From the IMG/VR virus record IMGVR_UViG_3300018494_004239: a stretch of DNA of 64,000 nucleotides; one strand, given 5' to 3'. The notes below the pieces were generated by a model. The model worked only from the letters and a program-made list of their open reading frames with translations. It did not search any database and was not told where the DNA came from. Position 1 is the first letter of the stretch; every line of letters begins with the position of its first letter. Source of the stretch: an uncultured virus (IMG/VR IMGVR_UViG_3300018494_004239). Lineage: Duplodnaviria; Heunggongvirae; Uroviricota; Caudoviricetes. Below, piece by piece: positions 725-58,346 of the stretch. Both the position numbers and the translations under genes were made by a program.

Positions 725-1723
725 TTATTGGGTGATTGGAGTTACAACAGTTGATGTATAGGCATATCTTGTTTGACCATTTTCTTCATATTCATAAACT
801 AATCTAAAATATTTATTTATATTTTCATTTGATGTGCTATATGTGATGCTGAAGTTAACAACTTTTTTGTCGGGATTCTGTAACGAAGCAAAATCTCCTG
901 CATCAATTCTGTCTTTTAATAAGATTTTTGATGCGGCGGTATTGATATTGAGCGCTCCATGATTTTCGCTATGATATATAATATATATTTTGTCAAAATC
1001 AACATTTATGCCTTCCTCTTTTACAAGCACCATGTCATATTTTGTATAGTAAAGTCCATTTTCTTTTCCAATATAGGAATTTTCTATAATTGAAATATTT
1101 GGTATTTTAGTATCCGAAGATAAATCAATCCATTCATTTAGAGAAGTTTTTGTATGTGAATAATTGATATTGGAAGGTAATAAATCAGATAAAGTGGAAG
1201 TGTCGATATTCTTTTCTGCAACAAGTGTATAACCCGTTACAGTATTGTACCAATAAGTCATGTCGCTTTGCTTTGGTTCGAAAGTGGAAGAACTGGTCTT
1301 CATATAATTCTGCATAACTGCTTTTGCGGTTTCATGGTTTTGTGCATACTTATTATCAATATCGATGCGAATGCCGTTGAAACCTGCCAAACTTTCGAGT
1401 TTTTCAATATCAGCACGGGTTACTGCTTTGGTAACATTATATACTCTGCCTTGTGCGGCATCCATATTATCAGGAACTCCATCACCGTCTCCATCTTTGA
1501 TTGCACCAGATGCGATATCCTGCTTATATAATTCGTATTCGCTTACAAACCTTTCCATCGCATTCGTCATTTCACTGGCATTGGTGTTATCCGCAGATAC
1601 ATTTGCTCTGTCGATAAGTCCAGCAACGGAAGGAATAGCAATTGCCGCCAACACAGCAAGAATTCCGATTACCACAAGTAACTCGATAAGTGTAAAACCT
1701 TTTCGGGAAGTTAAAATTTTCAT
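725..1723 (-). CDS. Type IV pilin-like protein (copy 1), orphan C-terminal domain
   Basis: Class III signal RKG|FTLIELLVVIGILAVLAAIAIP; shared module through 'FEPKQSD..YWY'. Confidence 0.9.
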   Translation of the reverse strand: MKILTSRKGFTLIELLVVIGILAVLAAIAIPSVAGLIDRANVSADNTNASEMTNAMERFVSEYELYKQDIASGAIKDGDGDGVPDNMDAAQGRVYNVTKAVTRADIEKLESLAGFNGIRIDIDNKYAQNHETAKAVMQNYMKTSSSTFEPKQSDMTYWYNTVTGYTLVAEKNIDTSTLSDLLPSNINYSHTKTSLNEWIDLSSDTKIPNISIIENSYIGKENGLYYTKYDMVLVKEEGINVDFDKIYIIYHSENHGALNINTAASKILLKDRIDAGDFASLQNPDKKVVNFSITYSTSNENINKYFRLVYEYEENGQTRYAYTSTVVTPITQ

Positions 1724-1754
1724 AAAAAATCATCCTTTCATTTATGTTAAACAT

Positions 1755-1782
1755 AGCATAGATGATTTTTTTTTCTTGTCAA
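1755..1782 (-). promoter_or_regulatory. Pilin-1 promoter TTGACA-16 bp (contains A9)-TATGCT
   Basis: Read on the minus strand; RBS GAAAGGATGA downstream. Confidence 0.6.
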
Positions 1783-1804
1783 AGATATTTACAAATAATT
1801 ATTT

Positions 1805-2075
1805 TTCCGCCCACCCTTCTCCCCAAAACCCCCTCAAAAAGAAAAAACTCTTTCCCAACCCCCTTAAAAAAAGAAGAATTATTCTCCTTAAACTTCTTAA
1901 AAAGAAACACTGTTCTCCATAAACCCCTTTGGGGAAGAAAAACTATTTCCCCAAACCCCCTCAAAAAAGAAACACTGTTCTCCATAAAACCCTTTTGGGG
2001 AGAGACACTGTTCTCCACAAAATCCTTTGAAAAAGAAAAATTATTTTACTTAAACCACTTAAAAAAGAAACTTCT
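1805..2075. repeat. Degenerate tandem repeat, about 8 units of ~31-33 bp
   Basis: Recurring TTCTCC(A/C)..AAACCCC.T.AAAAAGAAACACTG; AAAAAGAAACACTGTTCTCCATAAA occurs twice. Confidence 0.75.
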
Positions 2076-2103
2076 TTTATCTTCCCAAAACGAAACTTTT
2101 ATG

Positions 2104-2828: not shown

Positions 2829-3200
2829 ATGAATGTACTGGCGGCAATTACTATCGTTTTAGCAGCACCTTTAATTTGGGTATTTATTGTTTTTTCTACG
2901 AAGAAGAAATGGGTATCCATTCTTTGTTTCGTACTCGCTTTTTCTATCGTTGGAGGTTTTTGCTTCTATATTGAAGGGGCAAGAGATAACTTCGTAGAGG
3001 GCTCTAATATTGTTTGTACCTTTGATGGTGAAAAGGTATATGAAGATGATGGCGAATACTTTATTGTAGTTACCAATAAATATAATCCACTTAATATCTA
3101 TGAGCGACAGGTCGTTGACAAAGAGTTCGTTGATGAGTGGGTGTCTTTCTCGGATAAATATGGAGATACCATTACGAGTATTCAGAGCAATAATGAGTAA
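2829..3200 (+). CDS. Hypothetical membrane protein
   Basis: AGGAGG RBS; two N-terminal hydrophobic segments. Confidence 0.75.
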   Translation: MNVLAAITIVLAAPLIWVFIVFSTKKKWVSILCFVLAFSIVGGFCFYIEGARDNFVEGSNIVCTFDGEKVYEDDGEYFIVVTNKYNPLNIYERQVVDKEFVDEWVSFSDKYGDTITSIQSNNE

Positions 3201-3266
3201 TATCTTCTTATCTACTTCGGGTTAAAATGTAATTCTGAATAATATATGCTAAAATAAGACAGTGGG

Positions 3267-4076
3267 GTGAATGATATGTTTTTTATATTACAAGCGCAAG
3301 ACGATATGAAGTTGATGCAGGTTGATTATGCTATATTAAAGGAACTTCTTGAATATTCTCATTTTGACTATGCTGAAATGCGTTTAGCAGATTTTTATAA
3401 CGGTGATAAACAATTGAAAAAATCTACTGAATTTCCAAATGAATATAAAGATGCTATTCCGCTCGGCACTATCAATTTCGTTACTGCATATCTTAATATT
3501 TTCAAAAATATAGAGAAAATGAATCCAATAGAGATTCCCAAATGCTTACGGACGGATGAGTTTTTGAAAAGAAAATATAGTATAATGTACGGCAAAGATA
3601 TTCCAAAGGACAAAGCATATTTTATAAAAAATGTTTCTACCTTAAAAACATTTTCTTATACTGGTCGAATAGATGCTATTTACAATGAACCCGATGCACT
3701 GTCGCAAAAAAGACCTATTGAGGATGATGATTTGTATCAAGTTTCTGATATTTTGAATATTCGTTCTGAATATCGAGTTTACTTTATCGCTGGAGAGTTA
3801 TATGCTATTGCTTATTATGATGGTGATGCAACGGTTTTTCCCGATGTTAATTTGATACAAAAGGCAAACTTAATCTATTCTATGCAGAAAGATTATCCAA
3901 GAAGTTATACTATGGACGTTGCGGTTTCTGATAAGGGCACTGCAATTTTGGAATGCCATCCCCTATTTAGTTGCGGTATTTATCAGACAGTTTTGGGAGT
4001 AGACTTTCTCTATGGGTATCGTGACTCTATGTATTATCTTGAGCGATACAATACAAAACATGAAGCGGATACGTGA
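3267..4076 (+). CDS. ATP-grasp domain protein (DUF4343/R2K-like)
   Basis: 'FIKN', 'SEYRVYF', 'YTMDVAV..GTAILECH...CGIY'. Confidence 0.7.
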   Translation: MNDMFFILQAQDDMKLMQVDYAILKELLEYSHFDYAEMRLADFYNGDKQLKKSTEFPNEYKDAIPLGTINFVTAYLNIFKNIEKMNPIEIPKCLRTDEFLKRKYSIMYGKDIPKDKAYFIKNVSTLKTFSYTGRIDAIYNEPDALSQKRPIEDDDLYQVSDILNIRSEYRVYFIAGELYAIAYYDGDATVFPDVNLIQKANLIYSMQKDYPRSYTMDVAVSDKGTAILECHPLFSCGIYQTVLGVDFLYGYRDSMYYLERYNTKHEADT

Positions 4077-4087
4077 GGAATATAAAA

Positions 4088-4135
4088 ATAGCGGTCTTAT
4101 CTGCCTTTTAGGGCGGGTAAGACCGTTTTTCTTTT
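4088..4135 (+). terminator. Intrinsic terminator
   Basis: gcggtcttatctgcc/gggcgggtaagaccgt stem followed by T-run. Confidence 0.75.
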
Positions 4136-4308
4136 ATTGGGGATATTCGGTTATTGGTTATATATTGGATGTGTTATAGGGTGTTCTGTGGGGTTATGGA
4201 AGTATTGGGTATTTAATATTGTGTCGTTATTAGTATATTTAAGGCTGGTTAATGGAATGTAGTTAATAGTTTTCTTTTTTATGAGTCGTGAACAAAGGGA
4301 TTGGTGGG

Positions 4309-4404
4309 TGAACTATTTTAGTGGGTTATGGGAATAGGCGAGGGGATGTGAATTATTTTAGTGGGTTATGGGAATGGGGTTGGATGGTGGGGTGGGTGGG
4401 TAGG
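4309..4404 (+). repeat. G-rich tract with a 27-bp direct repeat and G-quadruplex-capable motif
   Basis: TGAA(C/T)TATTTTAGTGGGTTATGGGAAT twice, then GGGG-N9-GGGG-T-GGG-T-GGG. Confidence 0.75.
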
Positions 4405-4467
4405 TGATATTTTTCACGAGCATGCATAAAAAAATCGGGGAACTTTCGTTCCCCAGATTATATATGA

Positions 4468-5775
4468 TTAACTGATGACGAAGGCAGGGTAAACAGGACG
4501 ACTATCGTATGCATTGACATGGTATTCATCGCCACGACCATAACAGAAGAAATCCTCATAACAGCGAGAATAAGGCGAACGAAGCCAGAACCAATCGTCA
4601 ACATAACCGTCGTCGGCAAACCAATCAAATGTTTCGCCTTCTGCTTCAATTTCAGTTATATACTCGTACCAACCAGACATGTCGTCATTAAAACCAACCT
4701 CTTTGATGGAAGGTAAGAATAAATAACAAGTTACACACTTTGAGCTATTCAAATTATTATCACCATCGGCACATGTAATGGTTGTAGGACTAATTACTGC
4801 TCTTAAATTTGCATCGAGATTATTATATACTTCTCCATCCAACCATGTCTTCATTTCTGTATCTGTATAACCATTGATATTATCGCCCCAAGGATAATCT
4901 GTACTTGGTGCAGTCATTCTGTGGTTGCCAATGTTTGATGTAAGCATAAATGTAACTTTATCACTATCAATGTCAACAATCCGTGCTTGTCTTGTATTCC
5001 CGTTGATTGTAAAACTTGGAGTCAAATCCCCTGTTTTCCAACCTGCATCGGTAACTTTTCCTGCACGAATTACTGCTTGAATTGTTGTCCAGTCGTTATT
5101 GGCAAGAGTTGAATCAACGGTGGACATATCAAGAGAAGTGTCTCCACTTAACGTAGCACCAAGTGTAAGGTCAATCCACTGTGCATTTACACTGTCTGAT
5201 GTGATATCATTACCTTTTGCATCCATACCAGAGATAGCATACTTATCTAATTCAGCAGCAGTTTTTGTCGGTTCTGCAACTACAACAACACCACAATCTG
5301 GTGAATACCAATAGTGCACATCTGATTGCTTTGGTTCAAAGGTGGAACTGGAAGTTTTTGTATAGTTTTCTACAACTTTTTGCATAGTGTAAGCATTCAT
5401 AGGATATTTGGTGTCTCTATAAATTGCAATCACATCATCAGCAACTGTTGCATTTTGAGCGAACTCGATTCCTTCAATACCAGCACGAGTTGTCACATCA
5501 ATTACATTTTTAACTCTACCCTGTGCACTGTCTAAATTATCTGGGTCTAATGTACCAGAGGCAATGTCCTGACAGTAGAGTTCATACTCCGAAGCAAATC
5601 TTTCGAGTGCATTTGTCATCTCGTTGCTATTAGTTTTATCAGCAGATACATTTGCTCTGTCAATAAGTCCTGCAACTGAAGGAATTGCGATAGCGGCAAG
5701 AACTGCGAGAATGCCAATAACTACGAGTAATTCAATTAAAGTAAAACCCTTACGGGATTTAATATTTAGTTTCAT
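4468..5775 (-). CDS. Type IV pilin-like protein (copy 2) with DUF6273-like/C-lectin-type C-terminal domain; candidate DGR target
   Basis: Prepilin signal; C-terminus 'YLFLPSIKEV', 'WFWLRSP', 'VYPAFVI'. Confidence 0.85.
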   Translation of the reverse strand: MKLNIKSRKGFTLIELLVVIGILAVLAAIAIPSVAGLIDRANVSADKTNSNEMTNALERFASEYELYCQDIASGTLDPDNLDSAQGRVKNVIDVTTRAGIEGIEFAQNATVADDVIAIYRDTKYPMNAYTMQKVVENYTKTSSSTFEPKQSDVHYWYSPDCGVVVVAEPTKTAAELDKYAISGMDAKGNDITSDSVNAQWIDLTLGATLSGDTSLDMSTVDSTLANNDWTTIQAVIRAGKVTDAGWKTGDLTPSFTINGNTRQARIVDIDSDKVTFMLTSNIGNHRMTAPSTDYPWGDNINGYTDTEMKTWLDGEVYNNLDANLRAVISPTTITCADGDNNLNSSKCVTCYLFLPSIKEVGFNDDMSGWYEYITEIEAEGETFDWFADDGYVDDWFWLRSPYSRCYEDFFCYGRGDEYHVNAYDSRPVYPAFVIS

Positions 5776-6064
5776 AAGAAATCATCCTTTCACATATAGT
5801 ATATTTACTATACGTGATTTTTTTCTTGTCAATGAAAAATCTCTACGAACTTTTCGTGGAGATTTGTATTCACCGTCGTCTACTTCTTTGTTTTTTGTTA
5901 TTTAATGGTGTCTATTGCATAAGTTTAATTTTTGTGGGGTTTTGAAGTGGGAAGATAGATAATATTATAGGGATAAAAGGCAAAAATGTTTGAATTTTTG
6001 GGAAGTGCTATTGGGTAGTAGAAAACATAAAAAGGACATCGATATCGATGTCCTTTTTGGAAAA

Positions 6065-7435
6065 TTATTTGCAACCTGCATTGTGGACAACTACACCATT
6101 AACAATGTAATTGTGGAAATTTGCAACACCTAAATTGTAAGTGTTATAGTTATCTATTGCAGGTCTGGTTTCAATAGAAATTATTGTGACATTGTTGTTG
6201 TATCCGACCAAGGTGTCTCCAACTTCTAACATTGGTACAATTCCAACATCAGTAATTGTCTCAACCATTTCTGGTCTCAAAGATTTCCAGCCATCTGTGG
6301 TGAGGAGTGGATGATATGCTCTCATTCCGATTTGTGTACCATCAGAAAGATTTACATATACAAGGTCATCAGAATTGTGCTTGATAATGGTATTGGTTAC
6401 TGGTTGTGCAACAAATTCGCCAGTAGTTTCATTGAGTGACATTACCATATCACCAACAATAACATCTTCAATGTTCTTGGTTGTTCCATCTGCCATCAAA
6501 ACTTGTGAACCAGCATCAAAGCAACACCAATGGATTGGTTGATAATCTCTTCCATCAACTATAACATGGGTTCTTTCGACCCAATAAGAATCTGGCGCAC
6601 CACTTAAACTCCAAGAATCAGCGGATGTATGTTTTGGTGTATAAATTCTTATAGCATCATCATGCATAAAGTCAAAGTAAATTTCTGGTGTTGGAGTTGT
6701 TCTTTGATATTCTGGATGTTCATTCAACCATTCTTCCCAAGTTTGACCTTCTTTTGCTGTAAATCTATAACCAGCAAAACTAAAAGTTATTGTTTTTACC
6801 ATTGGTACTTGCGAGTCAGATGTTACATTACACCAATTTGCATAATTATCATCAAGTGCATTTCCTTTTGCATCCTTGCCAGAAACCACTAAATCATTAA
6901 GTTGTGCAATAGAGGCATTAGTATCAGCAACTACAACAATACCACAATCTGGATTGTACCAATAACTGCAATCTGATTGTTTTGGTTCAAATGTTGCGCT
7001 TGATGTTTTTGTATAATTTTGAATAATGGCTTCAAGTGTATATGTATTTAGTGGGTATTTAGTATCTCTACTAATTTTAGAATTTAAGTGTCCATTGCTT
7101 TCTAAATTAGTGATGTCTTCACGAGATACAGCACCAGTTACATTGAATACTCTACCTTGTGCACTATCTAAATCGCCATCTGGTTTGCCATCGCCATTTT
7201 CGTCTTTAATGACACCACTGGCAATATCCTGACAATAGAGTTCGTATTCGCTTGCGAATCTTTCGATTGCATTAGTATATTCATTAGCATTGGTATTGTC
7301 GGCAGAAACATTTGCTCTGTCAATCAAACCAGCAACACTTGGAATGGCAATTGCTGCGAGCACAGCAAGAATACCAATGACCACAAGTAGTTCAATTAGT
7401 GTGAAACCCTTACGGGATTTGTAATTAAATTTCAT
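6065..7435 (-). CDS. Type IV pilin-like protein (copy 3) with C-terminal Hint (intein-like) domain
   Basis: Prepilin signal; Hint 'CFDAGSQVLMADG..KNIEDVIVGDMV', 'HPLLT..GW', 'TYNLGVANFHNYIVNGVVVHN' (6080..6523). Confidence 0.9.
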   Translation of the reverse strand: MKFNYKSRKGFTLIELLVVIGILAVLAAIAIPSVAGLIDRANVSADNTNANEYTNAIERFASEYELYCQDIASGVIKDENGDGKPDGDLDSAQGRVFNVTGAVSREDITNLESNGHLNSKISRDTKYPLNTYTLEAIIQNYTKTSSATFEPKQSDCSYWYNPDCGIVVVADTNASIAQLNDLVVSGKDAKGNALDDNYANWCNVTSDSQVPMVKTITFSFAGYRFTAKEGQTWEEWLNEHPEYQRTTPTPEIYFDFMHDDAIRIYTPKHTSADSWSLSGAPDSYWVERTHVIVDGRDYQPIHWCCFDAGSQVLMADGTTKNIEDVIVGDMVMSLNETTGEFVAQPVTNTIIKHNSDDLVYVNLSDGTQIGMRAYHPLLTTDGWKSLRPEMVETITDVGIVPMLEVGDTLVGYNNNVTIISIETRPAIDNYNTYNLGVANFHNYIVNGVVVHNAGCK

Positions 7436-7537
7436 AAGAAATCATCCTTTCATACTTGATAAACTAAATATAAATGATTTTCTTCTTTTTGTCAATGAAA
7501 AATCTCCACCATAAAGGTGGAGATTTGTATTGTGTAT

Positions 7538-8161
7538 TTACTTTCTGTTTTCCCAAGACTCAACAACCATACATCCAGCAATTTCTTTTAGAATTTCAAT
7601 ATCATCGCCCTGAAGGATTAAATCAAAAACAGTTTCCTCATTTCCTGCTTTGGTAAAAAGTCTATACTTTGTTTGTTCTGATGTAGTTAACTTTTTAATT
7701 GTCCAAGCATAATCTGATGAAATTTCTATATCTTTCATTTCTTCGACGGTAAATTCGCTGCTAATAGAAAGATACTGCTCTTGATACAAAGAAATAACTC
7801 CAAGAATGTTTCCGTCATCATCCCTAAATATACGAGAATAATCGCCTAATGTTTCGGAATTTCCATATTTTTTATTCGTGAAATGGAGTCTGACTGTTGA
7901 ACTATTGGACAAATCGTTTGTTAGATTATAGATGATGTAAGTTTGACTTTTGTATTCACCGTCATCCACTTCTTCGTTTTTTGTTATTTCATCCTCAACA
8001 GGTTTGGTATCTTCTGTTGTGGGTTCGGTTTGTGTTTCGTCTTCTGTGGTGTCTTGAACAATACTTTCATCAGTGTTATTGGTAGTATTGTTGTTTTGAC
8101 CACAAGCAACTATAGAGAATAGCAACAAAACCGATAAAATTAAACATAATATTTTTTTCAT
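7538..8161 (-). CDS. Putative lipoprotein
   Basis: Lipobox IVAC followed by a T/E/D-rich linker. Confidence 0.75.
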   Translation of the reverse strand: MKKILCLILSVLLLFSIVACGQNNNTTNNTDESIVQDTTEDETQTEPTTEDTKPVEDEITKNEEVDDGEYKSQTYIIYNLTNDLSNSSTVRLHFTNKKYGNSETLGDYSRIFRDDDGNILGVISLYQEQYLSISSEFTVEEMKDIEISSDYAWTIKKLTTSEQTKYRLFTKAGNEETVFDLILQGDDIEILKEIAGCMVVESWENRK

Positions 8162-8196
8162 AAGATATACTCCTTTTTGTATTTTATTTAGAAAAA

Positions 8197-10653: not shown

Positions 10654-10746
10654 CGTCCTTTATTCTAAATTATAACATAAATTTTTCGTTTTGTCAAAAA
10701 TACAAAAAAGAAAAGTCCGAGAAAATCTCGGACTTAACTTATGTTT

Positions 10747-14630: not shown

Positions 14631-14738
14631 AGTATTTCCTCCTTTATTTGTTACTATTATTATACCATAAATCACTTTCAATGTCAACTGTTTTTTGAGA
14701 AAAAGTAAAGGGATTCGAACAAGTCGAATCCCTCTGCT

Positions 14739-25845: not shown

Positions 25846-26463
25846 TTACCCTCCATTGTTACTTGTATATAGTATATAGTTTTCTGTTGGCATTTCATTT
25901 GTTAGTCCGTTTTCAACAGATGAAGTAATATTAATCCACATTCCCGTTAAATCATCTTCATCTCTTGTACTCATTAAAATTTCTTTTAATACATTTCTGT
26001 CTGTAATGCCTTTTTCTGCTTTTACAACGAGACCTGTATCTACATTGTAATAGTAATCAAAACCAAATTGAGATGGTGTTGTTAATTTTTTGTTTTCAAC
26101 TTGACAGTAATTAAATACGACTGCTGAAAAACTTTTTGCAGTTATTGGTAAAAAGTCTTTATCAAATGTCGCATTACATCTGTTATTGATTAGTTCTTCA
26201 TAATTCGTTTCTCCATCTGTTACCTGTCTTAATACTGCTTCAACTTTTGGCATATCATAAGTCGCAGACAAATAAGAGCGACCATCAATAGCGTAGTGAT
26301 TTATTGCGATTTCCATTGCTCTAATCTCTTGCATATCGCTTGATGCTCTTGCCTTTTCTATAATTCCAGCAACAGAAGGTACAGTTACGAATGCTAAAAC
26401 AGCAAGAATGCCGATAACTACTAATAGTTCGATAAGGGTAAAACCCTTTTTAGAAGTGAGCAT
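25846..26463 (-). CDS. Short, divergent type IV pilin-like protein (copy 4), no tip domain
   Basis: MLTSKKG|FTLIELLVVIGILAVLAFVTVPSVAG; first gene of the ABC operon. Confidence 0.85.
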   Translation of the reverse strand: MLTSKKGFTLIELLVVIGILAVLAFVTVPSVAGIIEKARASSDMQEIRAMEIAINHYAIDGRSYLSATYDMPKVEAVLRQVTDGETNYEELINNRCNATFDKDFLPITAKSFSAVVFNYCQVENKKLTTPSQFGFDYYYNVDTGLVVKAEKGITDRNVLKEILMSTRDEDDLTGMWINITSSVENGLTNEMPTENYILYTSNNGG

Positions 26464-36177: not shown

Positions 36178-36303
36178 AAGTAATCATCCTTTCATTCATA
36201 TTGAATATATTATGGATAGCATTCGTTTTATTGTCAATAAAATTAAAATTTGTTTTTGTAAAAAAGGCTTGACAATAGTGATAATGTGTGATATAGTAAC
36301 GAT

Positions 36304-41574: not shown

Positions 41575-41814
41575 AAACGAAAAAGCACCGATGGCAAATC
41601 GGTGCTTTTTTCTGATATATAGGAGTCTGGTCATTAACATGGCAAAAGAGCCAAAGGAGATGTGCGATGTTCAATCACAATTATATTGTATTGTGTTTCG
41701 TTGCGAAATTCAAGTAAAAAAATAGGGAGTTGATAAAAAATATTTTTCTTCAGATTGACTTTCTAATTGATTTGTGATATAATTATATCATTACAAAAGA
41801 AAGGAGAGATATCG

Positions 41815-42216: not shown

Positions 42217-42316
42217 TTATCAATAAATCTCTTGCTGTGTAAGAAAGATAGTTATATTAGTAATAATCCTTATAAACATTTACACGCTCATTGCGTTAAC
42301 GGAGGTGTTATTGTTT

Positions 42317-46368: not shown

Positions 46369-46450
46369 TTTTTCATTTATGTTAATAAATGAAAAAAGAC
46401 ATATGTCTTTTTTCATTTATGTTAATAAATGAAAAAAGACATATGTCTTT
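46369..46450. repeat. Perfect 40-bp tandem duplication built from two palindromes
   Basis: TTTTTCATTTATGTTAATAAATGAAAAAAGACATATGTCT twice. Confidence 0.9.
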
Positions 46451-50205: not shown

Positions 50206-52390
50206 TTATTATGCCCTCCTTATGTTTAATAATTGCTTTTAAATACAGAACATAGAGTTCTTTTATCGTTACGAGGTCTTCTTTATCGTGGCGATTTTTT
50301 GTGCTTTCAATTAAGCGATTAACATTTTCAATTGCTTTTTTGAAAAACACTTCATGTTTAGTTGTTGTAATAAAATGCTTACATGCCATACAGGGCAAAG
50401 CATTAGTCATTATGCAGGTTTCTGCAGAACATTTTCCACAACCATCCTCAACATCGTTTTCTTCACCAGCGAGATGTTCTGGAATGTCATCAACAATTTT
50501 GGAATCGGTTTCAATCAGTTCTGCTCCGATTGTAATACCGTAAGTGGATTCCAACATCTTTTCTAATTCCATTTCAATATAATGGTTTTTAGTTGTGTCA
50601 AGATGTTTATGTTTGGATAACACAGTCATTTCCATATCGCTCTTACCATTTCGCATGATATGTTCCAAAGATTTAGTCATATGAGTATCACGAAGATTGG
50701 ATGCTGTGTAACTGTGTGATAGACCGAGTTCTTTGCATATATCTGACATATTATTGCTAAATAATTGTGCAGATAAAGCACTGATATTCTTTCCTTTTTT
50801 GGGTTTAAATAGGAAAATGTAATTTTTAATACTATCAACCACACACTCTTCTCTGGCAGATTCCGTGTATTCAATAATATCCATTAGTAAATGATATGTC
50901 AATGGACTAATAACACTCGATATTTTTTTACCATGAGATATCTTTGTATTAGATACAACTATAAATTGATTTGGTTTTATTGTTGGTTTTATACAATCTG
51001 TGGTTAAGGTACATATTTGATTTATTCTAAACTCGGTTTGTAATGCTAAATGAAAAATTGTATGCATAAGTTTAAACTTATCGCTTGTTTGACTTTTTTC
51101 TAACAAATATTCATTTATTTTAATCAGGTCTTCATCTGGAATTGTTTTTGCGGTGTTTTTATTTGGTTCTTCATATTGAGATAGGTAATCGAAAAACAAA
51201 TCGTCGAATTGTAACTTTTTACTGTCTTTTGCCCACATCAAGAACCTTCTAATTGCACCTATTTCGTTATTCTTGGTTGATATGTTAATATCTTTTGAAT
51301 TGATTTTTTCTCTTAATAAAATCGCTTCTTGATTTGTGAAATATTTGGTGTTTTTATTGGGATATTTTGCTTGTTTTTTAAGTTCAACAAAGAATTGCAT
51401 ATAGTTGGCAATTAGCATTGGAGAACTTGATTTGAATATCAGTCCACCAACATTTTTATTTGTCACTATATACTCTAACATCAAGTTGACATAATCTGTA
51501 TTTTGTACAAAACTGAAATCAAATGTCATATGGTCTTCTTTTTTCATTCTTGTAGATTGATTGTCAAGACCTTTCAAAATAATACAAATCTTACTTTTAT
51601 TTTTTGGAATGTTTGTAGGATTTAATGTATAAAAGTAAAAATCGTTTGCTAACCAATGTGGGAATCTTCTTGTGAAGATTATTGGTTGTGTCATATAAAA
51701 AGAATTGGTGAACAGATTCTCTTCTGGGTATAATTTAACCAACTCTCTATAAAAATCCGCTATTGCTAAAGCACAGTCATAAATTATTTTGTTGTAGTCG
51801 TCTATGCCATTGAATTTTTGTTTATAGTAGTTTATCTGTGAGAATAACACATTCTCATTAAAATCGCTGGGTTTGTTAATTTTGTTTTCGTATTCAACAA
51901 AACTTTCAATAAAGTTATGTGATAAAAACTCATGCTTCCATAACTCTTCATTAGGACTGTTGGATAAACATTGGCCAATGACTTGCTTCAAAAATTTATT
52001 TTTAGTTTCTATAAATCGAAGCGAATAACTATTGACAGCTTTTATTACGAACAATGATTCGATTTTATTGCTACACATAATTTTTGGAAGCAAAGTACTG
52101 TTTGCATCAACAAGTGTATTAAACACTGGCAACAATTCATAAAGAGTATCTGCATATTCACCGTGATATAAGTTGTTTTTCAATAAAATATACATAACAT
52201 AAAATGCATGTTTTCGGGAATCGTATTTTACAGAATCATTGCAAATATCAGACCAATTGATTTCAGAAATCTTTTTTTGACAATATTCAACGACAAAGGG
52301 ATTGCTTTTGTGTTCTGTTTTTCGCGTGCTATATAGTTTTCTAACCTCTTGAAACACATCATTCATTGTGTTTAATTTATTCAATAGCAT
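50198..52390 (-). CDS. Tyrosine recombinase 2 (divergent)
   Basis: 'EFRINQI','SNLRDT','KHKHLDTTKNHY'. Confidence 0.8.
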   Translation of the reverse strand: MLLNKLNTMNDVFQEVRKLYSTRKTEHKSNPFVVEYCQKKISEINWSDICNDSVKYDSRKHAFYVMYILLKNNLYHGEYADTLYELLPVFNTLVDANSTLLPKIMCSNKIESLFVIKAVNSYSLRFIETKNKFLKQVIGQCLSNSPNEELWKHEFLSHNFIESFVEYENKINKPSDFNENVLFSQINYYKQKFNGIDDYNKIIYDCALAIADFYRELVKLYPEENLFTNSFYMTQPIIFTRRFPHWLANDFYFYTLNPTNIPKNKSKICIILKGLDNQSTRMKKEDHMTFDFSFVQNTDYVNLMLEYIVTNKNVGGLIFKSSSPMLIANYMQFFVELKKQAKYPNKNTKYFTNQEAILLREKINSKDINISTKNNEIGAIRRFLMWAKDSKKLQFDDLFFDYLSQYEEPNKNTAKTIPDEDLIKINEYLLEKSQTSDKFKLMHTIFHLALQTEFRINQICTLTTDCIKPTIKPNQFIVVSNTKISHGKKISSVISPLTYHLLMDIIEYTESAREECVVDSIKNYIFLFKPKKGKNISALSAQLFSNNMSDICKELGLSHSYTASNLRDTHMTKSLEHIMRNGKSDMEMTVLSKHKHLDTTKNHYIEMELEKMLESTYGITIGAELIETDSKIVDDIPEHLAGEENDVEDGCGKCSAETCIMTNALPCMACKHFITTTKHEVFFKKAIENVNRLIESTKNRHDKEDLVTIKELYVLYLKAIIKHKEGIIND

Positions 52391-53735
52391 TCCCTCCCTT
52401 TAATTCTGGTATCATGTCGTATAATTCCTTTTGGAACTCTGTTTTAATCTTATATTCATCTTCTGGTGTAGGATTGTAATACACCATCGTAGATGAAATA
52501 TTTTTATGCCTCATCATTTTTTGCAAAGATAATGCATCAGCGGGATGCTTTGAAAATCTTGCATGGAACATTGCAAAACCGTGTCTAAAGCGATGACTTA
52601 AATTATTATCACGAACATCAATATCGATAGGGATGCCTGCAATATCAAAATATTTTTTTAGGGCATTATTCCATGTTTGGTCACTCAATACACGACCATA
52701 TCTATTTAAAAACACATAATGATTAGTGTCTGGTTTATCTCTTACAGAAACAATGTCGGCAATGCCTTCTTCATAGTTTGCTGGATATTTTTCAATCATT
52801 TCCGAATGCATTTCTTCAATAAGTTCTACCAGTTCTTCATATAGTGGATAAGTGATAATAATTTTTTGAGTTGCTGCACGATAATCTCTGGATGCATATT
52901 GGCGCTGGTCAACAATATGAGGTAATCCTTTCGCAAATTGGAATTTAGCATCACTCATTCTGTTGCGAAGCATAATGACTGGAACAAGTTTACCATTGTC
53001 GCGTATCTCACAAATGTCTTCAATGGTTATGCCAAGCACCTCTCCGAGTCTCAAACCATACCCATACATAAGATGGACAATTAATCTCGCTTGTTTATCA
53101 TTGGCATCAATGATGGATTTAAATATTTTCTTAAAGTCATCGGGTCCAATATATTTTGGCACAGTATTCGTATTGTAATCGGGTGTTTTTAGGTTATTAT
53201 CATACTTCTTTCTTTCTGGGGAAGAAGGAGTTCCTTCAAAGATATGTTCGCTTTGAACTGTATGAGATTTGAATATTGCCTCACAGTTAACCCTTGCATA
53301 AGAAAAGTAAGAACGATATACAGACAAATATCCGTTAACAGTGTTGTTGCTTCGCTGGGTTTTCATTGCATATTGTTCTGGGTTTGTATTGATACCACGA
53401 AGGAAAAATAGCAATTCATTGAATGCTGTTTCATTTAATGTATTTATCTTATAACCAGAAAGGGACAAGAAGCAATAAAGTAATCTCAATGCAAAAGCTG
53501 ATTTGCTCCTGCTGGTTAGTGGACTTTCTTTTAATTTGAAATTAAGGTAGTTATAAACAGTGGTAATGGGTTTCATATTGTCGTCATATTGGATGAAATA
53601 TGTATATCCGTCTTGTTCTAATTGATAAAGTGGCATTGACACCTTTCTTTCGGACATAACATTTCCTTTTTCGTCGAGTATTGATTTAACAAATACAGAT
53701 TGATTACCTAATTTATTTTCACTATAAATAATCAT
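52377..53735 (-). CDS. Tyrosine recombinase 1
   Basis: GLRLGEVL, SHRFRHGFA, MRHKNISSTMVY. Confidence 0.9.
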   Translation of the reverse strand: MIIYSENKLGNQSVFVKSILDEKGNVMSERKVSMPLYQLEQDGYTYFIQYDDNMKPITTVYNYLNFKLKESPLTSRSKSAFALRLLYCFLSLSGYKINTLNETAFNELLFFLRGINTNPEQYAMKTQRSNNTVNGYLSVYRSYFSYARVNCEAIFKSHTVQSEHIFEGTPSSPERKKYDNNLKTPDYNTNTVPKYIGPDDFKKIFKSIIDANDKQARLIVHLMYGYGLRLGEVLGITIEDICEIRDNGKLVPVIMLRNRMSDAKFQFAKGLPHIVDQRQYASRDYRAATQKIIITYPLYEELVELIEEMHSEMIEKYPANYEEGIADIVSVRDKPDTNHYVFLNRYGRVLSDQTWNNALKKYFDIAGIPIDIDVRDNNLSHRFRHGFAMFHARFSKHPADALSLQKMMRHKNISSTMVYYNPTPEDEYKIKTEFQKELYDMIPELKGGNAIE

Positions 53736-54003: not shown

Positions 54004-54996
54004 CCACCATATGTGAATCTGCATCAAATTGAAGAAAAAAATGCAATTCGTGATTTTGAATATTCTGCTAATGGTATGACAGACCTCTATATTGCATTTT
54101 TTGAAATGGGAGTAAAAATGCTCAATCAGAGTGGTAAACTTGGTTATATTACTCCAAATTCTTACTTTACCAGTGTCGCTGGTAAAAATATGAGAAAAAA
54201 CTTTGTTGATAAGAAGTTGTTGGTAAACATTGTTGATTTTGGTCATACACAGGTATTTAATAATGCATTGACTTATGCTTGTATCACAATTCTTGATAAA
54301 GACAATAAAAATGATAAAGTGGCATTTGAAAAAGAAAACAAAAGTTATAAACTTTCTTATGCAGATTTCTTTATCAATGAGAATTTCTATTTTTCTGCTA
54401 ATTCTGATTTTAAGAACATTATCAACTACAATGGTCAAAGATTTTGTTCAGTGAAAAATGGATGTGCTACTCTTTGGGATGAGTTTTTTATCAATTCTGA
54501 AATTGCAAAACAAAGTAAATTTTCTATTCCAATTGTTAAAAGTTCTACTGGTAAGCGATATCAATGCTATTATCCATACGACAAAAATGGAAAAGTTATA
54601 CCGTTTTCAGAAATTGAAAAAGATGAAATAACGGCAAAGTTTTTGGAACAAAATAAAGAGCGTTTGCTAAAAAGAAATCTTCACGATGTTTCTTTGTGGT
54701 ATGCATTTGGTCGAACACAAGCACTACCTGATACTTATAAAAACAAATATGGTATCAATGCCTTGTACAAAACACAAGATGATGTACATATTGTTGAGTG
54801 CGAGGCAGGATGTGCTGTTTATGGCGGGATGTATATATTAAGTGATTTAGATATAGGCACTCTTAAAAAAATACTTTGTACAGACGATTTTATCAAATAT
54901 GTATCTACTATTGGCAAGTACAAAAGTGGTGGATATTATACGGTTTCTACAAAAGATATTGAGAAATATCTAAACTATACACTATCAAAAAAGTAA
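54004..54996 (+). pseudogene. 3' half of the split adenine methyltransferase
   Basis: Frame opens CCA CCA TAT GTG (PPYV) right after TAA; TDLYIAFFE, YITPNSYF, GKYKSGGY. Confidence 0.88.
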
Positions 54997-55161: not shown

Positions 55162-56030
55162 ATGAATATAACTACAAGTTATAAAGTTCAAATTGTTGGT
55201 ATTAATAAAATGTTAAGACCAACTGTAAATAAATATAGAGAAGCGCTTACTTTCTTAATTCCCATTGTTGATAAAGAATGGGATATTATCTCCACAGCAA
55301 GTGGAGTAAAAAGAAAAGCAATTGTCGAACATCTTATTCATACGACAAAGGATAATGTAGCAAAATATCCAGAATTTGACCAATTGTTTCATAAGATGCC
55401 GAGTTACTTCCGCAGAGGAGTAATTGCCGATGCAATCGGCATTGTATCTTCTTATAGAAGTAAATATGAAAATTGGGAAAAGAATGGCAAGATTGGCAAA
55501 CCGCCAAGATTGCAGACCAAACATTATAATTGCCCAATTTTTTATAGAGACAATACTTATGAAGAGACAGATAATCCTAACATTGTTAATCTAAAACTTT
55601 ATATTAATAATGATTGGGTTTGGTATCACGTGCATCTTCGTGCTACGGATATTAAGTATATTCAGAAGCATTGTCAAAATAAAGAGATGTCTGCTCCAAT
55701 TTTGGAGAGAAGATATAACAAATACTATTTGAGATTTGCTTTTACTGAAAAGGTTAGACTGAATGAAGTAAAAGTAGAAAACCAAAAAGTGTTAGCAGTT
55801 GACCTTGGCGTCAATAACGATGCAGTTTGTTCGGTAATGACAGCAGACGGAACTGTCCTCAATAGAAAGTTCATTAACTTTAAGAGTGATAAAGACCGTA
55901 TGTATCATACACTGAATAAGATTAAAAAGAAGCAGAAAAAACATCAATCTGTTTCTAAACTGTGGAGTTATGCCAAGAACTGCAATGAACAGCATTCTAT
56001 TAAAATTGCACAAGCAATAGTAGATTATGC
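55162..56030 (+). pseudogene. tnpB: Truncated TnpB (IS200/IS605 remnant) with left-end hairpin at 55025-55069
   Basis: 'VLAVDLG.NNDA.CSVM..DG'; lacks RuvC II/III and zinc finger. Confidence 0.8.
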
Positions 56031-56429
56031 TGCCAACTTTTCAGCAACGAGCAACTGGTTCATAGACGGGGCGGGAGTGTCCATGATTTTATCCAAAACT
56101 TCTCGTGCTTCAACTTCAACGATAATTGTACGAGTGCCATGAGCACACCAGTCCAAGGAAGACTGATTAGGGTCAGAGATTACTCTGATGTACTCGTCAT
56201 TATACTCATAGATGTCGCTTACTACTAAAGTGGCGCTTTCGGGAATTTCGGCGGTATAAGGTTCATTGATGTTTTCAGAACCTATGCAACAAGGAATTGC
56301 AATTGCCAAAAAGATAATGAAAGCAATGAGCGGAAGGGCTTCTTCACAACCACATAAAACAAAGAGAGCGATAGCGATGATTGCGAGTACGGTAAAGATT
56401 CCACCAATGATGCAAAGAGTTAAATACAT
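56025..56429 (-). CDS. Hypothetical membrane protein (3' end possibly truncated)
   Basis: GGAGG RBS, two TM segments; collides with the tnpB remnant. Confidence 0.65.
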   Translation of the reverse strand: MYLTLCIIGGIFTVLAIIAIALFVLCGCEEALPLIAFIIFLAIAIPCCIGSENINEPYTAEIPESATLVVSDIYEYNDEYIRVISDPNQSSLDWCAHGTRTIIVEVEAREVLDKIMDTPAPSMNQLLVAEKLAA

Positions 56430-56641
56430 AATTCCTCCTATGTATGTTATGAATTTGAAATTTTGTTCAATAAGTGGTTTAGCTTAAAGAACAGATTCAT
56501 AACAATAAAAAATAAAAAATTTAAACCAAATATATTTTATTTTTTCTATTGATTTTTATCAAGAAAAAATTATATTCTTTTCAGTTGACATTGACGATGA
56601 AATATGATATAATGTAAATATCAAAAGGTAAGGAGCAATAT

Positions 56642-57109
56642 ATGAAAAAGTTTTGGAATGAAAATAAAGGCATTATTATTTTTGCAACAGTTATGTTTGT
56701 AATAATTTCTACACTTGTCGGTTTTGCTATTAATGAAGGTGTTAAACATCAAAGGTGGTTGGACAGTCTTTCGCCAGAAGAACTCGCTGCATACGAAGCA
56801 GAACAAGAGGCAGAGCGACAGAGTAACATTCACGAATATGAATTAATTAGTGTTTCTCAATATGTAAAAAATGTGACAAATGGTTTTGGTGGTGTTGTGC
56901 GAACAGAAGTCTGCTATACATTTTGTTATCTTGATAATGGTGTCTTGAAACAGGTTGATGATTTTTCACACCTTGAATATGGTTTAACCAAACTGATTAT
57001 TGGCGACAAAGATATGTATATTATCGACACGAATGGTGCAGACGACTATAGATATTTGCAATTAACAGAAGAAACACTTAAAAACATCAAAACACTCGCA
57101 AATGGATAA
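56642..57109 (+). CDS. Membrane-anchored hypothetical protein
   Basis: Consensus promoter, RBS, one TM segment. Confidence 0.75.
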   Translation: MKKFWNENKGIIIFATVMFVIISTLVGFAINEGVKHQRWLDSLSPEELAAYEAEQEAERQSNIHEYELISVSQYVKNVTNGFGGVVRTEVCYTFCYLDNGVLKQVDDFSHLEYGLTKLIIGDKDMYIIDTNGADDYRYLQLTEETLKNIKTLANG

Positions 57110-57146
57110 AAAGAAAGAGGTATGACAATGAGTCATACCTCTTGTT

Positions 57147-58346
57147 TTAATAACCAAATTGTGTGCAACCGATAAATATGTTTGATGGTGCAAATTGTGC
57201 TGGGACATTTGGCATAGATACAAGTGATGTGCATTTTCCGAATAGTTTATTGGCGTTCACAAGAGTTGATGGAATTTGTGGTGCATATTTAAGTGATGTG
57301 CATCCGTAAAAAGTGCCATTGTAAGTATTTATTTCTCCCATATAGTTTACACCATCTGGAATTTTGTAGTTAGACATGTCTACAAGAGAAACACAATTCA
57401 TAAAGGTTTCGTTCATAGCAATTATTGTTTTTGGCATAGCGGGAGGAACAATGAGGTTTCGGCAATCTTTAAATGTTTGGAATGCACTTGTTACATTCAT
57501 TGTTCCAACTTTTTCAAGAATTGGACCATATGTTGTTTGATTTAATGAAACAACATCTTTATTTAAATGTACTTGCCATTGATTTGTTCCGCCCCTACGG
57601 ATATAATAATAGTCTCCATAGTAATATCTGTCCTCAAAACTTATATTTTGGGGGAATGGAGAACCACTATTTAGTACTTCACCGTTTGCCTTTACATAGT
57701 AAGCGCCTGTCGGGATAACATCCTTATGCATAAGAGAAACTACTGCATTATCAGTCATATCTAACCATATTGTAGTTGGACTTAAATCATTCCCTTTGGC
57801 ATCTGTGCCAGATTTTACCATTTTGTTTAATTCTTCAACGGAAATATTTTCATTTTCTGTGCACACAACCAAACCACAGTCTGGTGAATAATAATAGTGA
57901 CAATCTGATTGTTTTGGTTCAAAGGTAGAAGACGATGCCTTCGTGTAATTTTGCACAATTAATGCAAGTGTATTTGTGTTTTCTGGATATTTTGTATCAC
58001 GGTTTAATTTTATACCATTAAGACCAGAAGTTTCTAAATCAGTAATATCTTTGCGAGTTGTTGCTTTTGTAACATTGTATACACGACCTTGTGCACTGTC
58101 TAAATTGTTTGGGTCTAATGTTCCAGAAGCAATGTCTTGGCAATAGAGTTCGTATTCACTTACGAATCTTTCCATTGCATTAGTGTACTCATTAGCATTG
58201 GTATTGTCGGCAGATACATTTGCACGGTCAATTAAACCTGCAACCGATGGAATAGCAATTGCTACTAACACAGCAAGTATTCCTATCACAACAAGTAACT
58301 CTATTAAAGTAAAACCTTTGCGGGATTTGAAACTGAATTTTTTCAT
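57147..58346 (-). CDS. Type IV pilin-like protein (copy 6) with LRR C-terminus
   Basis: Prepilin signal; 'YYYGDYYY' domain and 'TF..C.SL' repeats shared with copy 5. Confidence 0.88.
   Translation of the reverse strand: MKKFSFKSRKGFTLIELLVVIGILAVLVAIAIPSVAGLIDRANVSADNTNANEYTNAMERFVSEYELYCQDIASGTLDPNNLDSAQGRVYNVTKATTRKDITDLETSGLNGIKLNRDTKYPENTNTLALIVQNYTKASSSTFEPKQSDCHYYYSPDCGLVVCTENENISVEELNKMVKSGTDAKGNDLSPTTIWLDMTDNAVVSLMHKDVIPTGAYYVKANGEVLNSGSPFPQNISFEDRYYYGDYYYIRRGGTNQWQVHLNKDVVSLNQTTYGPILEKVGTMNVTSAFQTFKDCRNLIVPPAMPKTIIAMNETFMNCVSLVDMSNYKIPDGVNYMGEINTYNGTFYGCTSLKYAPQIPSTLVNANKLFGKCTSLVSMPNVPAQFAPSNIFIGCTQFGY

Follow-up and report, generated by a model that had tools for sequence, protein, structure and literature searches.

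A conserved prepilin stem carries different C-terminal tips

The stretch of DNA analysed here (the window, 64,000 nucleotides) encodes members of what we consider, with a probability of roughly two in three, a family of modular type IV pilins that is specific to one lineage and was shaped by duplication and by repeated replacement of the tip at a fixed junction, and not by programmed switching or cassettes. The pattern suggests that domains were swapped slowly in the course of evolution, and not that an active system switches them. A sequence-only reading of the window had described five dispersed genes (at 725, 4468, 6065, 34762 and 57147) that join a constant stem to differing C-termini, and a sixth, tip-less gene at 25846. 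All six were found at these positions, on the minus strand, and the combination of a constant stem with differing, mostly adhesin-like C-termini was borne out.

The common N-terminus of about 200 aa was confirmed: the five stems show 63–73% identity to P0005, and the mean column identity of the stem alignment is 73% over 200 aa. Assignment to the type IV prepilins was likewise confirmed. The Pfam N_methyl domain (prepilin cleavage/methylation motif, IPR012902) scored above its cut-off in six of six window pilins, the TIGR02532 domain exceeded its own cut-off in window pilins, and the motif G-F-T-L-I-E is present in 123 of 125 family proteins. The window proteins have signal peptides of class III, with Gly-1 and Glu5, and Glu5 together with the entire alpha-1N is strictly conserved. 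A stem profile matched 20 pilin or pseudopilin chains of solved structure over approximately residues 4–67, that is, over alpha-1 (for example 9egp, E 1.3e-12, and 8tj2 PilA, E 2.1e-7); the sequence match to solved pilins ends at about residue 67. AF2 models predict a helix spanning approximately residues 13–73 (13–45/49–73 and 14–46/53–74 in two models), followed by a small globular part of short helices and two to three strands with pLDDT 50–88, for which fold-search matches were dominated by the tips. At the two conserved Cys positions (207 scored), both residues were present in 136 cases, only one in 52 and neither in 19; these positions show no clean co-variation, and we therefore draw no disulfide argument from them.

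Table 1. Pilin genes of the window and associated sequence features (positions are those of the window).
Feature	Position	Strand	Description
Modular prepilin 1, P0001	725..1723	-	332 aa; stem 1 to ~202, then 130-aa tip
Modular prepilin 2, P0002	4468..5775	-	435 aa; stem and DUF6273 (C-type-lectin-like) tip, residues 275-434
Modular prepilin 3, P0003	6065..7435	-	456 aa; stem, ~100-aa middle region, C-terminal Hint/BIL-like domain
Tip-less divergent pilin	25846..26463	-	205 aa counted from M42
Modular prepilin 4, P0004	34762..36177	-	471 aa; stem, Cys-rich segment, LRR tip
Modular prepilin 5, P0005	57147..58346	-	399 aa; stem and BspA-type LRR tip
W-I-D-L-T motif in P0001-P0005	1118-1132, 5164-5178, 6821-6835, 35545-35559, 57753-57767	-	
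Promoter-like site, pilin 1	1755..1782	-	TTGACA, 16 nt including A9 run, TATGCT
Promoter-like site, pilin 2	5805..5832	-	14-nt spacer to TATAGT; A7 run 5817-5823
Promoter-like site, pilin 3	7467..7495	-	11/12 consensus positions
Conserved 5' region and putative promoter, pilin 4	36178..36242	-	-35 hexamer 36237-36232; repeat D5
Promoter-like site and 5' region, pilin 5	58347..58416	-	-35 hexamer 58416-58411
Terminator-like hairpin 3' of pilin 2	4436..4455	-	
Terminator-like hairpin 3' of pilin 3	6029..6058	-	

The DUF6273, Hint and two LRR tips read earlier were recovered. The tip of P0001, which is without a Pfam family match, had been taken for an orphan and is not unique: P0404 and P0411 are its paralogs, with 58% identity over the full length. 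The DUF6273 domain of P0002 (Pfam E 3.3e-17) was modelled by AF2 with pLDDT >90, and Foldseek matched the model to 9qa6 (E 4e-6). P0003 scored as Hint/PT-HINT (Pfam E 3.3e-9), and its Hint/BIL-like domain, at about residues 305–452, begins with Cys and ends in His-Asn. P0004 and P0005 are 41% identical over their whole length (417–426 aa) and have related LRR tips; P0004 was placed in tip cluster T1, and the BspA-type LRR tip of P0005 was assigned from the AF2 model and fold searches.

The tip-less pilin is present as described, but its start is most likely M42 (26463) and not 26586; a 205-aa protein identical to it from M42 is on record. It shares 31–37% identity with the tipped family and lies directly upstream of an ABC transporter ATPase gene (24940–25842), which it overlaps by 4 nt and which is followed by a permease gene (24104–24943). 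The repertoire is also larger than the six genes of the window. Four further family proteins (P0013, P0067, P0404 and P0411), none of them encoded in the window, have the same longest contig (678,911 bp) listed and are probably located on the contig of the window, so that at least ten paralogs, six in the window plus these four, appear to share one replicon.

Tips change at a fixed junction

The abrupt boundary between constant and variable parts was confirmed by alignment. Similarity ends at residues 200–215, just past the invariant Trp of the motif W-I-D-L-T (residues 194–211), and when 124 family proteins were compared pairwise by BLAST, the median end of the N-terminal match was at residue 204–215. 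In the AF2 models, pLDDT is low at the junction (49–68), between a stem of moderate confidence and tips above 90. Relatives carry dockerin, DUF285, LRR_8 and Hint tips, as well as many tips without a known family, and at least 22 unrelated tip clusters were found among 96–122 family proteins.

We propose that a carrier module of about 200 aa, made up of a class III signal peptide, a long hydrophobic alpha-1 helix and a small globular domain, would be joined by a flexible linker to one of many effector modules (BspA-type LRR, DUF6273/C-type-lectin-like, dockerin, DUF285, Hint and many familyless ones), with each gene forming a separate unit under a family-specific, putatively sigma-70-type promoter and a strong RBS. 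A prepilin peptidase would cut off the 7–10-residue leader after Gly, type IV filament machinery encoded beyond the window, on the replicon or by the host cell, would insert the stem into a pilus, and the bulky tip would be displayed at or along the filament, where it may bind proteins, glycans or cohesins. Filament incorporation, the location of the tip and ligand binding are suggested by analogy. The genes would have originated by duplication and repeated tip replacement at this one junction over evolutionary time, the stem being kept by purifying selection and the tips diverging fast.

None of the 60 window ORFs scanned is a PilB-, PilC- or PilD-type gene. This lack of assembly genes nearby would also suit a stem whose sole function is to anchor the protein in the membrane or to route it for export, be it for surface display as in the archaeal bindosome or for pseudopilus-dependent secretion, and which does not form filament subunits; so would its unusual size (200 aa), a model more helical than classical pilins, and the restriction of solved-pilin matches to alpha-1. 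We consider such a role unlikely, however, because Glu5 and the whole of alpha-1N are conserved as strictly as filament packing would demand, because the conserved tip-less paralog could be a structural subunit, and because characterised modular pilins with bulky modules enter pili (PMC8179133).

Tip replacement over evolutionary time

The sequence-only reading had regarded the tips as a library, possibly exchanged by the element's own RecA, for host or recipient range or antigenic variation, without a shufflon. The last point holds: the 64 kb contain only two inverted-repeat pairs, which are promoter-like and lie away from the pilins, and the three tyrosine recombinases form a tandem trio (48334–53735) that adjoins no pilin. 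At the DNA level the five stems are 61–77% identical, and the longest exact tract common to two stems ranges from 14 to 26 bp across the 10 pairs. Even the near-invariant N-terminal block is saturated at synonymous sites (pS 0.57–0.84); pS was 0.61–0.75 and dN/dS 0.11–0.27 (the latter in the 9 pairs with finite dS). As judged from these sequences, the window pilins are old paralogs with a stem under purifying selection. The tips are located in separate complete genes 1.6–29 kb apart, and tblastn found the six full genes only, with no silent or partial tip copies in the window.

Tips were replaced during the history of the family, as the stem phylogeny indicates. On a quick tree of 185–189 columns, tip type changes 30 times, compared with a minimum of 9 and with 54.7 ± 1.9 for shuffled labels, and an AU test rejects the DUF6273-tip stems as one clade (delta lnL 655, p 9e-42). 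Among proteins with LRR tips, stems are 72% and tips 23.5% identical, the tip being lower in 944 of 945 pairs. P0002 shares 83% identity with P0121 in the stem and 31% in the tip, versus 74% and 69% with P0052.

Past movement of tips between stem lineages, and the fact that the nearest-stem and nearest-tip partners differ (P0121 and P0052, respectively, for P0002), would be expected if tips were still exchanged between loci by homologous recombination through RecA, so as to vary host range or antigenicity in the manner of pilE/pilS or in place of a shufflon. The common stem could in principle serve as a recombination handle, and recA lies directly upstream of pilin 5. Yet we judge ongoing exchange of this kind very improbable. 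The absence of recent conversion tracts disfavours it: stem DNA is 61–77% identical with no exact tract above 26 bp in any pair, synonymous sites are saturated even in nearly invariant parts of the protein, every copy is full-length with a promoter-like site, the window holds no silent cassettes, and neither the inverted repeats nor the recombinase trio adjoin a pilin. The recA gene scores as an ordinary RecA equivalog, and nothing ties it to the pilins. Of the proposed interchange, repeated replacement over evolutionary time stands; RecA-driven exchange and antigenic variation find no support, and a role in host or recipient range would presuppose a conjugative element or a phage.

Promoter-like sites

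Each of the five dispersed tipped pilins had been credited with its own promoter, and in all five a conserved promoter-like site is indeed present, consisting of TTGACAA, an A-rich spacer, a -10-like hexamer and an RBS (GAAAGGATGAT). A consensus promoter scan did not call the pilin 2 site. The putative promoter region of pilin 5 lies in the gap that separates the stop codon of recA from the ATG of the pilin. Terminator-like hairpins were found 3' of three of the five genes (pilins 2, 3 and 5).

Poly-A runs in promoter spacers underlie phase variation of the Mycoplasma vlp genes. Slippage of this type could switch single pilins ON or OFF, varying expression and not sequence. In keeping with it, the spacers contain runs of A9 in pilin 1, A7 in pilin 2 and A9 in L006, and their lengths, counted by eye, are 14 nt for pilin 2, 16 nt for pilin 1 and L006, and 17 nt for pilin 3, L002, L014 and L018. 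Contigs of two runs have +TTTT exactly at the pilin 2 run (place 5817), with depths of 23.8/48.7 in X3 and 3.5/7.3 in X7. However, these contigs may represent paralogous promoters aligned at 80% likeness, the depth at place 5817 is about four times the unique depth, and the A-run is broken by G in most family members. Switching by slippage is distinctly unlikely in our view.

Comparison with known systems

The PilV shufflon of IncI plasmids (R64 thin pilus) joins an unchanging pilin N-terminus to one of several C-terminal adhesin segments, and these determine partner specificity. The window pilins share the constant N-terminus with alternative C-termini; unlike R64, the window has no clustered invertible segments, sfx-type inverted repeats or adjacent Rci-type recombinase, and each variant is a complete gene that could be expressed separately. 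A shufflon of this type was rejected, as neither of the two inverted-repeat pairs is at a pilin and the recombinases are elsewhere. In Neisseria, the pilS copies lack promoters and are partial cassettes that have long tracts in common. Both pilE/pilS and the window have several pilin copies and a RecA gene, whereas the window copies are complete, each with a putative promoter, share identical tracts of at most 26 bp and are saturated at synonymous sites. Gene conversion of the pilE/pilS type was rejected on the same tract length, on the pS of the conserved block and on the presence of six full genes only.

Of known concepts, the modular type IV pilin comes closest: in it, a short linker connects a carrier module with an effector module. 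An InterPro survey counted more than 1,200 such proteins in 264 architectures, and in Streptococcus sanguinis the effector of PilB is a vWA module and that of PilC a lectin module (Raynaud et al. 2021, PMC8179133). By the definition given there, the window pilins, with DUF6273, Hint and LRR tips behind a low-pLDDT junction, are modular pilins. Like PilB and PilC, they have an N-terminal pilin carrier, a linker and a bulky effector, which mediates adhesion in S. sanguinis (PMC8179133), and their signal peptide is likewise of class III, with Gly-1 and Glu5. They differ from known modular pilins in that a single, highly conserved carrier of 200 aa recurs with at least 22 unrelated tip clusters and in 151 clusters at 50% identity, in that at least ten paralogs, four of them by indirect placement, apparently occupy one replicon, and in that the window genes are dispersed with a family-specific promoter-like site and not arranged in a pil operon. 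The literature searched, including passages of PMC8179133, makes no mention of dockerin, BspA-LRR, DUF6273 or Hint tips on pilins.

DUF6273 has been described as the receptor-binding domain of Faecalibacterium phages ('tentaclins') and as the N-terminal domain of the T. ramosa IgA peptidase (PMC10743442 and PMC12402451). The P0002 tip resembles both in its C-type-lectin-like DUF6273 domain, which binds ligands in those proteins. In contrast to the tentaclins, whose domains are diversified by DGRs, DUF6273 sits here on a pilin. The scanned window ORFs contain no RT domain, and the window holds neither a repeat matching the P0002 tip region nor any template/variable repeat pair; a DGR target protein was rejected for want of a reverse transcriptase and a template repeat in the window.

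Family distribution and carrier replicon

The stem defines a tight family that was found in metagenomes only. At 50% identity, 151 representatives match with E <= 1e-30, followed by a gap to generic pilins; the family comprises at least 602 clusters at 90% identity, and stems are typically about 60–80% identical in the pairs examined. A pattern scan of 185,579 GTDB species genomes found no member, a profile search of 399 sampled Clostridia yielded matches to alpha-1 only, and no relative was found in IMG/VR, a phage collection or PLSDB (plasmids). The replicon measures at least 679 kb, is unclassified and comes from herbivore gut samples; it may be a giant mobile element or a very small bacterium.

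At slightly less than even odds, we consider the carrier a giant mobile element (a megaphage or plasmid-like extrachromosomal element) of gut Clostridia, whose accessory pilins would borrow the type IV pilus machinery of the host cell and so redirect the host's adhesion, for instance through dockerin tips that dock to cellulosomes. Such use of host machinery is plausible because generic pilin N-termini occur in 151 of the 399 sampled Clostridia. A mobile element would fit the absence of the family from the GTDB and Clostridia genomes and a RecA clade (87–100% identity, 10 clusters) found in raw ENA/Logan assemblies only, beyond which identity falls to at most 70%, with Clostridia nearest. It would further fit 14 perfect TTGACA-N16-18-TATAAT sites (0.23 expected), at least five DNA methyltransferase genes, TnpB, the recombinase trio, T5orf172, a NinI-like phosphatase, two intron-like inserts in gyrB, and 22 of 54 non-pilin ORFs without a Pfam match. 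However, the window contains no phage structural, terminase, plasmid replication or conjugation gene, and the virus, phage and plasmid collections hold no relative. In addition, recA, ung and coaE score above NCBIfam equivalog cut-offs, gyrB and yqeY are present, and the pilins of relatives have cellular-looking neighbours (FtsH, HtrA, LtaS-like sulfatase and LemA).

A joint reading, which we offer tentatively and regard as fairly unlikely, makes the carrier, at about 0.68 Mb, an undescribed kind of entity: a megaphage or giant extrachromosomal element of gut Clostridia, or else an ultra-small, Clostridia-like epibiont that genome catalogues have overlooked. At its surface it would rely mainly on one pilin carrier combined with more than 100 adhesin tips; among these would be dockerin tips, by which a pilus plugs into the cellulosomes of other cells, and a Hint tip that cleaves itself. 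Single members might be switched by promoter poly-A runs. The giant-mobile-element reading is about the carrier and does not conflict with the modular pilin explanation.

A conserved stem carries different tips

The sequence-only reading had described five genes of the window as prepilins in which a common N-terminus of about 200 residues (the stem) is followed by different C-terminal domains (the tips), together with a sixth, divergent pilin that has no tip. Our analysis confirmed both points. Each of the six proteins has the prepilin cleavage/methylation motif (Pfam N_methyl). In the five tipped proteins (P0001 to P0005, encoded by p1 to p5), the stems of roughly 200 residues are 63-73% identical to that of P0005, with a mean column identity of 73%, and they contain a near-invariant block that starts at G-F-T-L-I-E-L-L-V-V-I-G and extends to an R-A-N-V-S-A-D motif. 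The junction between stem and tip lies directly after the Trp conserved in W-I-D-L-T; in a comparison of 124 family proteins, the median end of the N-terminal BLAST match falls at residue 204-215. Foldseek and VIA-align match lists for the pilin models were filled by tip domains. An argument for a disulfide from conserved Cys residues was rejected, as no clean co-variation was seen.

Pilin genes of the window
Feature	Coordinates (nt)	Strand	Basis
Prepilin P0001 ORF	725-1723	-	ORF call and translation
Prepilin P0002 ORF	4468-5775	-	ORF call and translation
Prepilin P0003 ORF	6065-7435	-	ORF call and translation
Prepilin P0004 ORF	34762-36177	-	ORF call and translation
Prepilin P0005 ORF	57147-58346	-	ORF call and translation
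Tip-less pilin ORF, as called	25846-26586	-	ORF call and translation

The tip-less pilin shares 31-37% identity with the tipped family, the value for P0001 in a six-way alignment being 33%. Because P0369, a recorded protein of 205 aa, begins at Met42 of this pilin and its orthologs measure 204-220 aa, the gene is best placed at 25846-26463. It overlaps the start of an ABC transporter ATPase gene by 4 nt. The best NCBIfam match of this ATPase is of the lantibiotic-protection type, below cut-off, and an ABC-2 permease gene comes next; the three genes form an apparent operon (24104-26463, minus strand).

Tips belong to many types

The tip of P0002 is a DUF6273 domain (Pfam, E 3.3e-17), and a Foldseek search with the P0002 model hit the Thomasclavelia ramosa IgA peptidase (E 4e-6). 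One publication annotates the N-terminal domain of that peptidase as DUF6273 (PMC12402451), and another gives the DUF6273 of phage receptor-binding proteins a C-type-lectin-like fold (PMC10743442). P0003 ends in a Hint/PT-HINT domain (E 3.3e-9) whose first residue is Cys and which closes with His-Asn followed by four residues; since it has this start and end, general knowledge of Hint and BIL domains predicts that the tip cleaves itself. P0004 and P0005 are 41% identical over their whole length. The P0001 tip has no Pfam family, and its earlier description as an orphan was refuted by two paralogs, P0404 and P0411, which match P0001 at 58% identity over the full length.

Among 106 further representatives, we found LRR_5 (30), DUF285 (5), LRR_8 (3), DUF6273 (2), Hint (2) and dockerin (2) tips, the remainder matching no family; dockerin tips are common in the closer relatives. 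Tip clustering of 96 proteins yielded 22 groups. With a fixed cut, 122 proteins fell into groups of 44, 24, 13, 7, 4, 3, 3, 2, 2 and 2 plus 17 singletons, two motif-lacking proteins being left out and one protein having a tip of fewer than 40 residues. A stand-alone 135-aa ORF that lacks a pilin stem, 1 kb from p4 (37166-37573, plus strand), matches BspA-type LRR_5 (E 1.9e-7); it has no similarity to the P0004 and P0005 tips (tblastn, E 1e-3).

Tips were replaced in evolution, with no evidence of an active exchange system in the window

On a stem tree of 119 distinct rows built with a quick method, tip type changed 30 times, compared with a minimum of 9 and with 54.7 ± 1.9 in 200 label shuffles. 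Forcing together the 24 stems that carry DUF6273 tips cost 655 log-likelihood units (AU p 9e-42). Within one tip type, divergence is far greater in the tips than in the stems: for the LRR type, stems are 72% and tips 23.5% identical, the tip value being the lower in 944 of 945 pairs. These sequence comparisons show that tips were swapped during evolution.

It had further been proposed that the element keeps a dispersed library of interchangeable tips, possibly exchanged by its own RecA. The stems of the five genes are only 61-77% identical in DNA sequence, and the longest exact tract common to a pair is 14-26 bp across the 10 stem pairs. Synonymous differences are high (pS 0.61-0.75 over the stem and 0.57-0.84 within the near-invariant block), and dN/dS is 0.11-0.27, with dS not computable for one pair. 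The conservation of the stem protein is therefore explained by purifying selection on old paralogs and not by recent gene conversion. A tblastn search of the window with all six pilin proteins recovered just the six genes, so the window holds no silent tip cassettes. Inverted repeats in the window were only promoter-like sequences away from the pilins, and neither a reverse transcriptase nor a template repeat was found there. The constant stem with swapped tips stands; an active, RecA-driven library is not supported, given tracts of at most 26 bp and no silent cassettes.

We also examined contigs of four sequencing runs. Stems were covered 5-10 times as deeply as unique flanks, in keeping with many paralogs, and none of these short-read contigs spanned a swapped tip at the same locus. 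In run X9, contigs matched the flanks at about 95% likeness and left the tip part of p1 at 853-1136 and that of p2 at 4545-5112 almost without cover; since this cover comes from short-read contigs broken at repeats, an uncovered tip part proves nothing. The many contig joints were rejected as evidence of rearrangement because they connect stems of paralogs at 80% likeness.

Upstream of p2, a 44-nt stretch (5863-5906) is 91% identical to 7949-7992 (repeat D13), an internal part of a lipoprotein gene (7538-8161) upstream of p3. This match looks like a duplication remnant and points to an origin of p2 and p3 from a tandemly duplicated lipoprotein-pilin unit.

Each tipped pilin gene has its own promoter

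The proposal that every tipped pilin gene has its own promoter was borne out. All five are preceded by TTGACAA, an A-rich spacer and a -10-like hexamer, with GAAAGGATGAT about 25 nt past the hexamer and ahead of the ATG. Counted by eye, about 13 of 20 upstream regions of metagenome relatives have the same layout; 4 lack any TTGACA and the others differed or were incomplete. A generic consensus scan called the p1 and p3 promoters and terminator-like hairpins 3' of p2 and p3, and a hairpin 3' of p5 was seen in the sequence. With their own promoters and these hairpins, the pilin genes are independent units. The spacer contains an A9 run in p1 (1755-1782) and in L006, the metagenome locus of a relative (upstream of 5209), and an A7 run in p2 (5805-5832); spacers measure 16 nt (p1, L006) and 14 nt (p2), and several other family members have 17 nt. 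At 5817, contigs from two runs contain an additional TTTT, which could reflect phase variation or simply paralog mapping.

The window also contains 14 perfect TTGACA-N16-18-TATAAT promoters, against 0.23 expected from shuffling (e.g. 680-708, 14659-14687, 37102-37130, 38730-38758, 39541-39569 and 56585-56613), many with an extended TG and conserved flanks (repeat families D6, D9 and D11). The pilin promoters are a class distinct from, and weaker than, these. Immediately upstream of the p1 promoter, within or beside ORF 1762-2163, lies a family of C-rich and A-rich direct repeats, with units of 71 nt and spacings of 96, 65 and 33 nt (1807-2071).

The stem defines a delimited family

With the P0005 stem as query, the matches listed comprised at least 602 clusters at 90% identity. 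When 1.84 billion representatives were searched exhaustively with a profile, 151 proteins scored E <= 1e-30, nearly all spanning the whole stem; below these lie generic pilins, the count rising to 419 for E <= 1e-10 and to 63,870 for E <= 1e-3. Owing to this sharp fall in score, the stem marks a sharply delimited family. Four proteins encoded outside the window, P0013 (LRR), P0067 (dockerin), P0404 and P0411, share their longest listed contig with P0005 (678,911 bp), and on this basis the replicon is likely to hold ten members or more.

No member of the stem family was found in GTDB species genomes or in 399 sampled Clostridia, the latter giving alpha-1 matches only (best 65.9 bits). IMG/VR returned nothing for P0002 or the stem alignment, neither the stem nor 50 kb of window DNA had a match in phage and plasmid collections, and ESM Atlas matches were generic N_methyl clusters only. 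A metagenome scan for related loci gave short contigs only (22 loci, 21 from one assembly). Runs containing window positions 3200-8200 were animal faeces and gut metagenomes, six with at least 95% of sampled words. On short metagenome contigs, the neighbours of relatives' pilins encode FtsH, HtrA, an LtaS-like sulfatase, LemA/DUF2207 and DNA methylases, and two contigs carry a second pilin in tandem.

Modular pilins are thought to explain how simple filaments have gained many functions. The window pilins have the architecture of modular type IV pilins (PMC8179133). Compared with those, what is new here is one conserved carrier reused with very many tips, the number of dispersed paralogs with a promoter each, the kinds of tip and the uncharacterised carrier. 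The window pilins lack the defining features of shufflons, of pilE/pilS systems and of DGR targets. In the literature accessible to our search, we found no paper on the stem family, nor one on pilins that carry a dockerin, BspA or DUF6273 tip. The family is an unusually clean natural case of a carrier kept near constant under selection, with very many modules and a fixed junction, and thereby a ready-made map of where pilins tolerate cargo. It also supplies adhesins of an uncultured inhabitant of the herbivore gut that can be put to the test (dockerin-cohesin, LRR, lectin, Hint autoprocessing).

The window combines housekeeping-type and mobile-DNA-type genes

No pilus assembly genes were found among the 60 window ORFs scanned. 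Genes of housekeeping type include recA, ung and coaE, all above equivalog cut-offs, as well as gyrB and yqeY. Those of mobile-DNA type comprise at least five methyltransferases, a GmrSD-HNH gene, TnpB, three tandem tyrosine recombinases, T5orf172, a PcfJ-like gene and a NinI-like phosphatase; 22 of 54 non-pilin ORFs had no Pfam match. RecA belongs to a clade of 10 clusters (87-100% identity) from raw assemblies only, the next relatives being at most 70% identical, with Clostridia nearest and IMG/VR relatives at only 48-56%. Matches of GyrB, RecA and Ung to "phage" records in tblastn were mostly to unannotated faecal or mixed records (45-66% identity). The carrier may be a giant mobile element or a very small bacterium absent from catalogues; the gene mix, the absence from catalogues, the faecal and gut runs and the neighbouring genes fit both alike. 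The pilin family and the RecA lineage are absent from genome, virus and plasmid catalogues yet lie on a 679-kb contig, which points to a large replicon type overlooked by current binning and classification.

Several further features were observed. gyrB (8197-10659, minus strand) is split into three reading-frame pieces (9322-10659, 8642-9109 and 8197-8403) by two inserts of about 277 nt (about 9092-9369 and 8374-8650), located exactly at the conserved EGDSAGG and YKGLGEM motifs; no gyrA was found near it. The inserts are related and alignable end to end (about 165 of 283 columns identical), and one weakly matches the group I intron model (RF00028, 21.3 bits, E 0.0086; gathering score 50, not reached). 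Both inserts probably represent self-splicing introns. An ORF at 31583-32611 (minus strand) starts with a low-complexity, lipoprotein-like N-terminus, and its serpin domain is limited to the first half (profile 11-185 of 370); the ORF may be truncated or frameshifted. TnpB-type genes are present at 20151-21326 and 55162-56142 (both plus strand), the first intact (IS605 OrfB / Cas12f-like TNB) and the second degenerate and OrfB-like. The three tandem tyrosine recombinase genes (452, 730 and 623 aa) adjoin a DUF6262-like gene within 47813-53735 (minus strand), an arrangement that resembles a recombinase-in-trio element. Beside them lie an EcoRI-type methyltransferase and the GmrSD/HNH gene (44028-46295), Eco57I-like methyltransferase genes or fragments flank the block (41767-43747 and 54013-54996), and the region contains a perfect 40-nt tandem duplication at 46369-46448.
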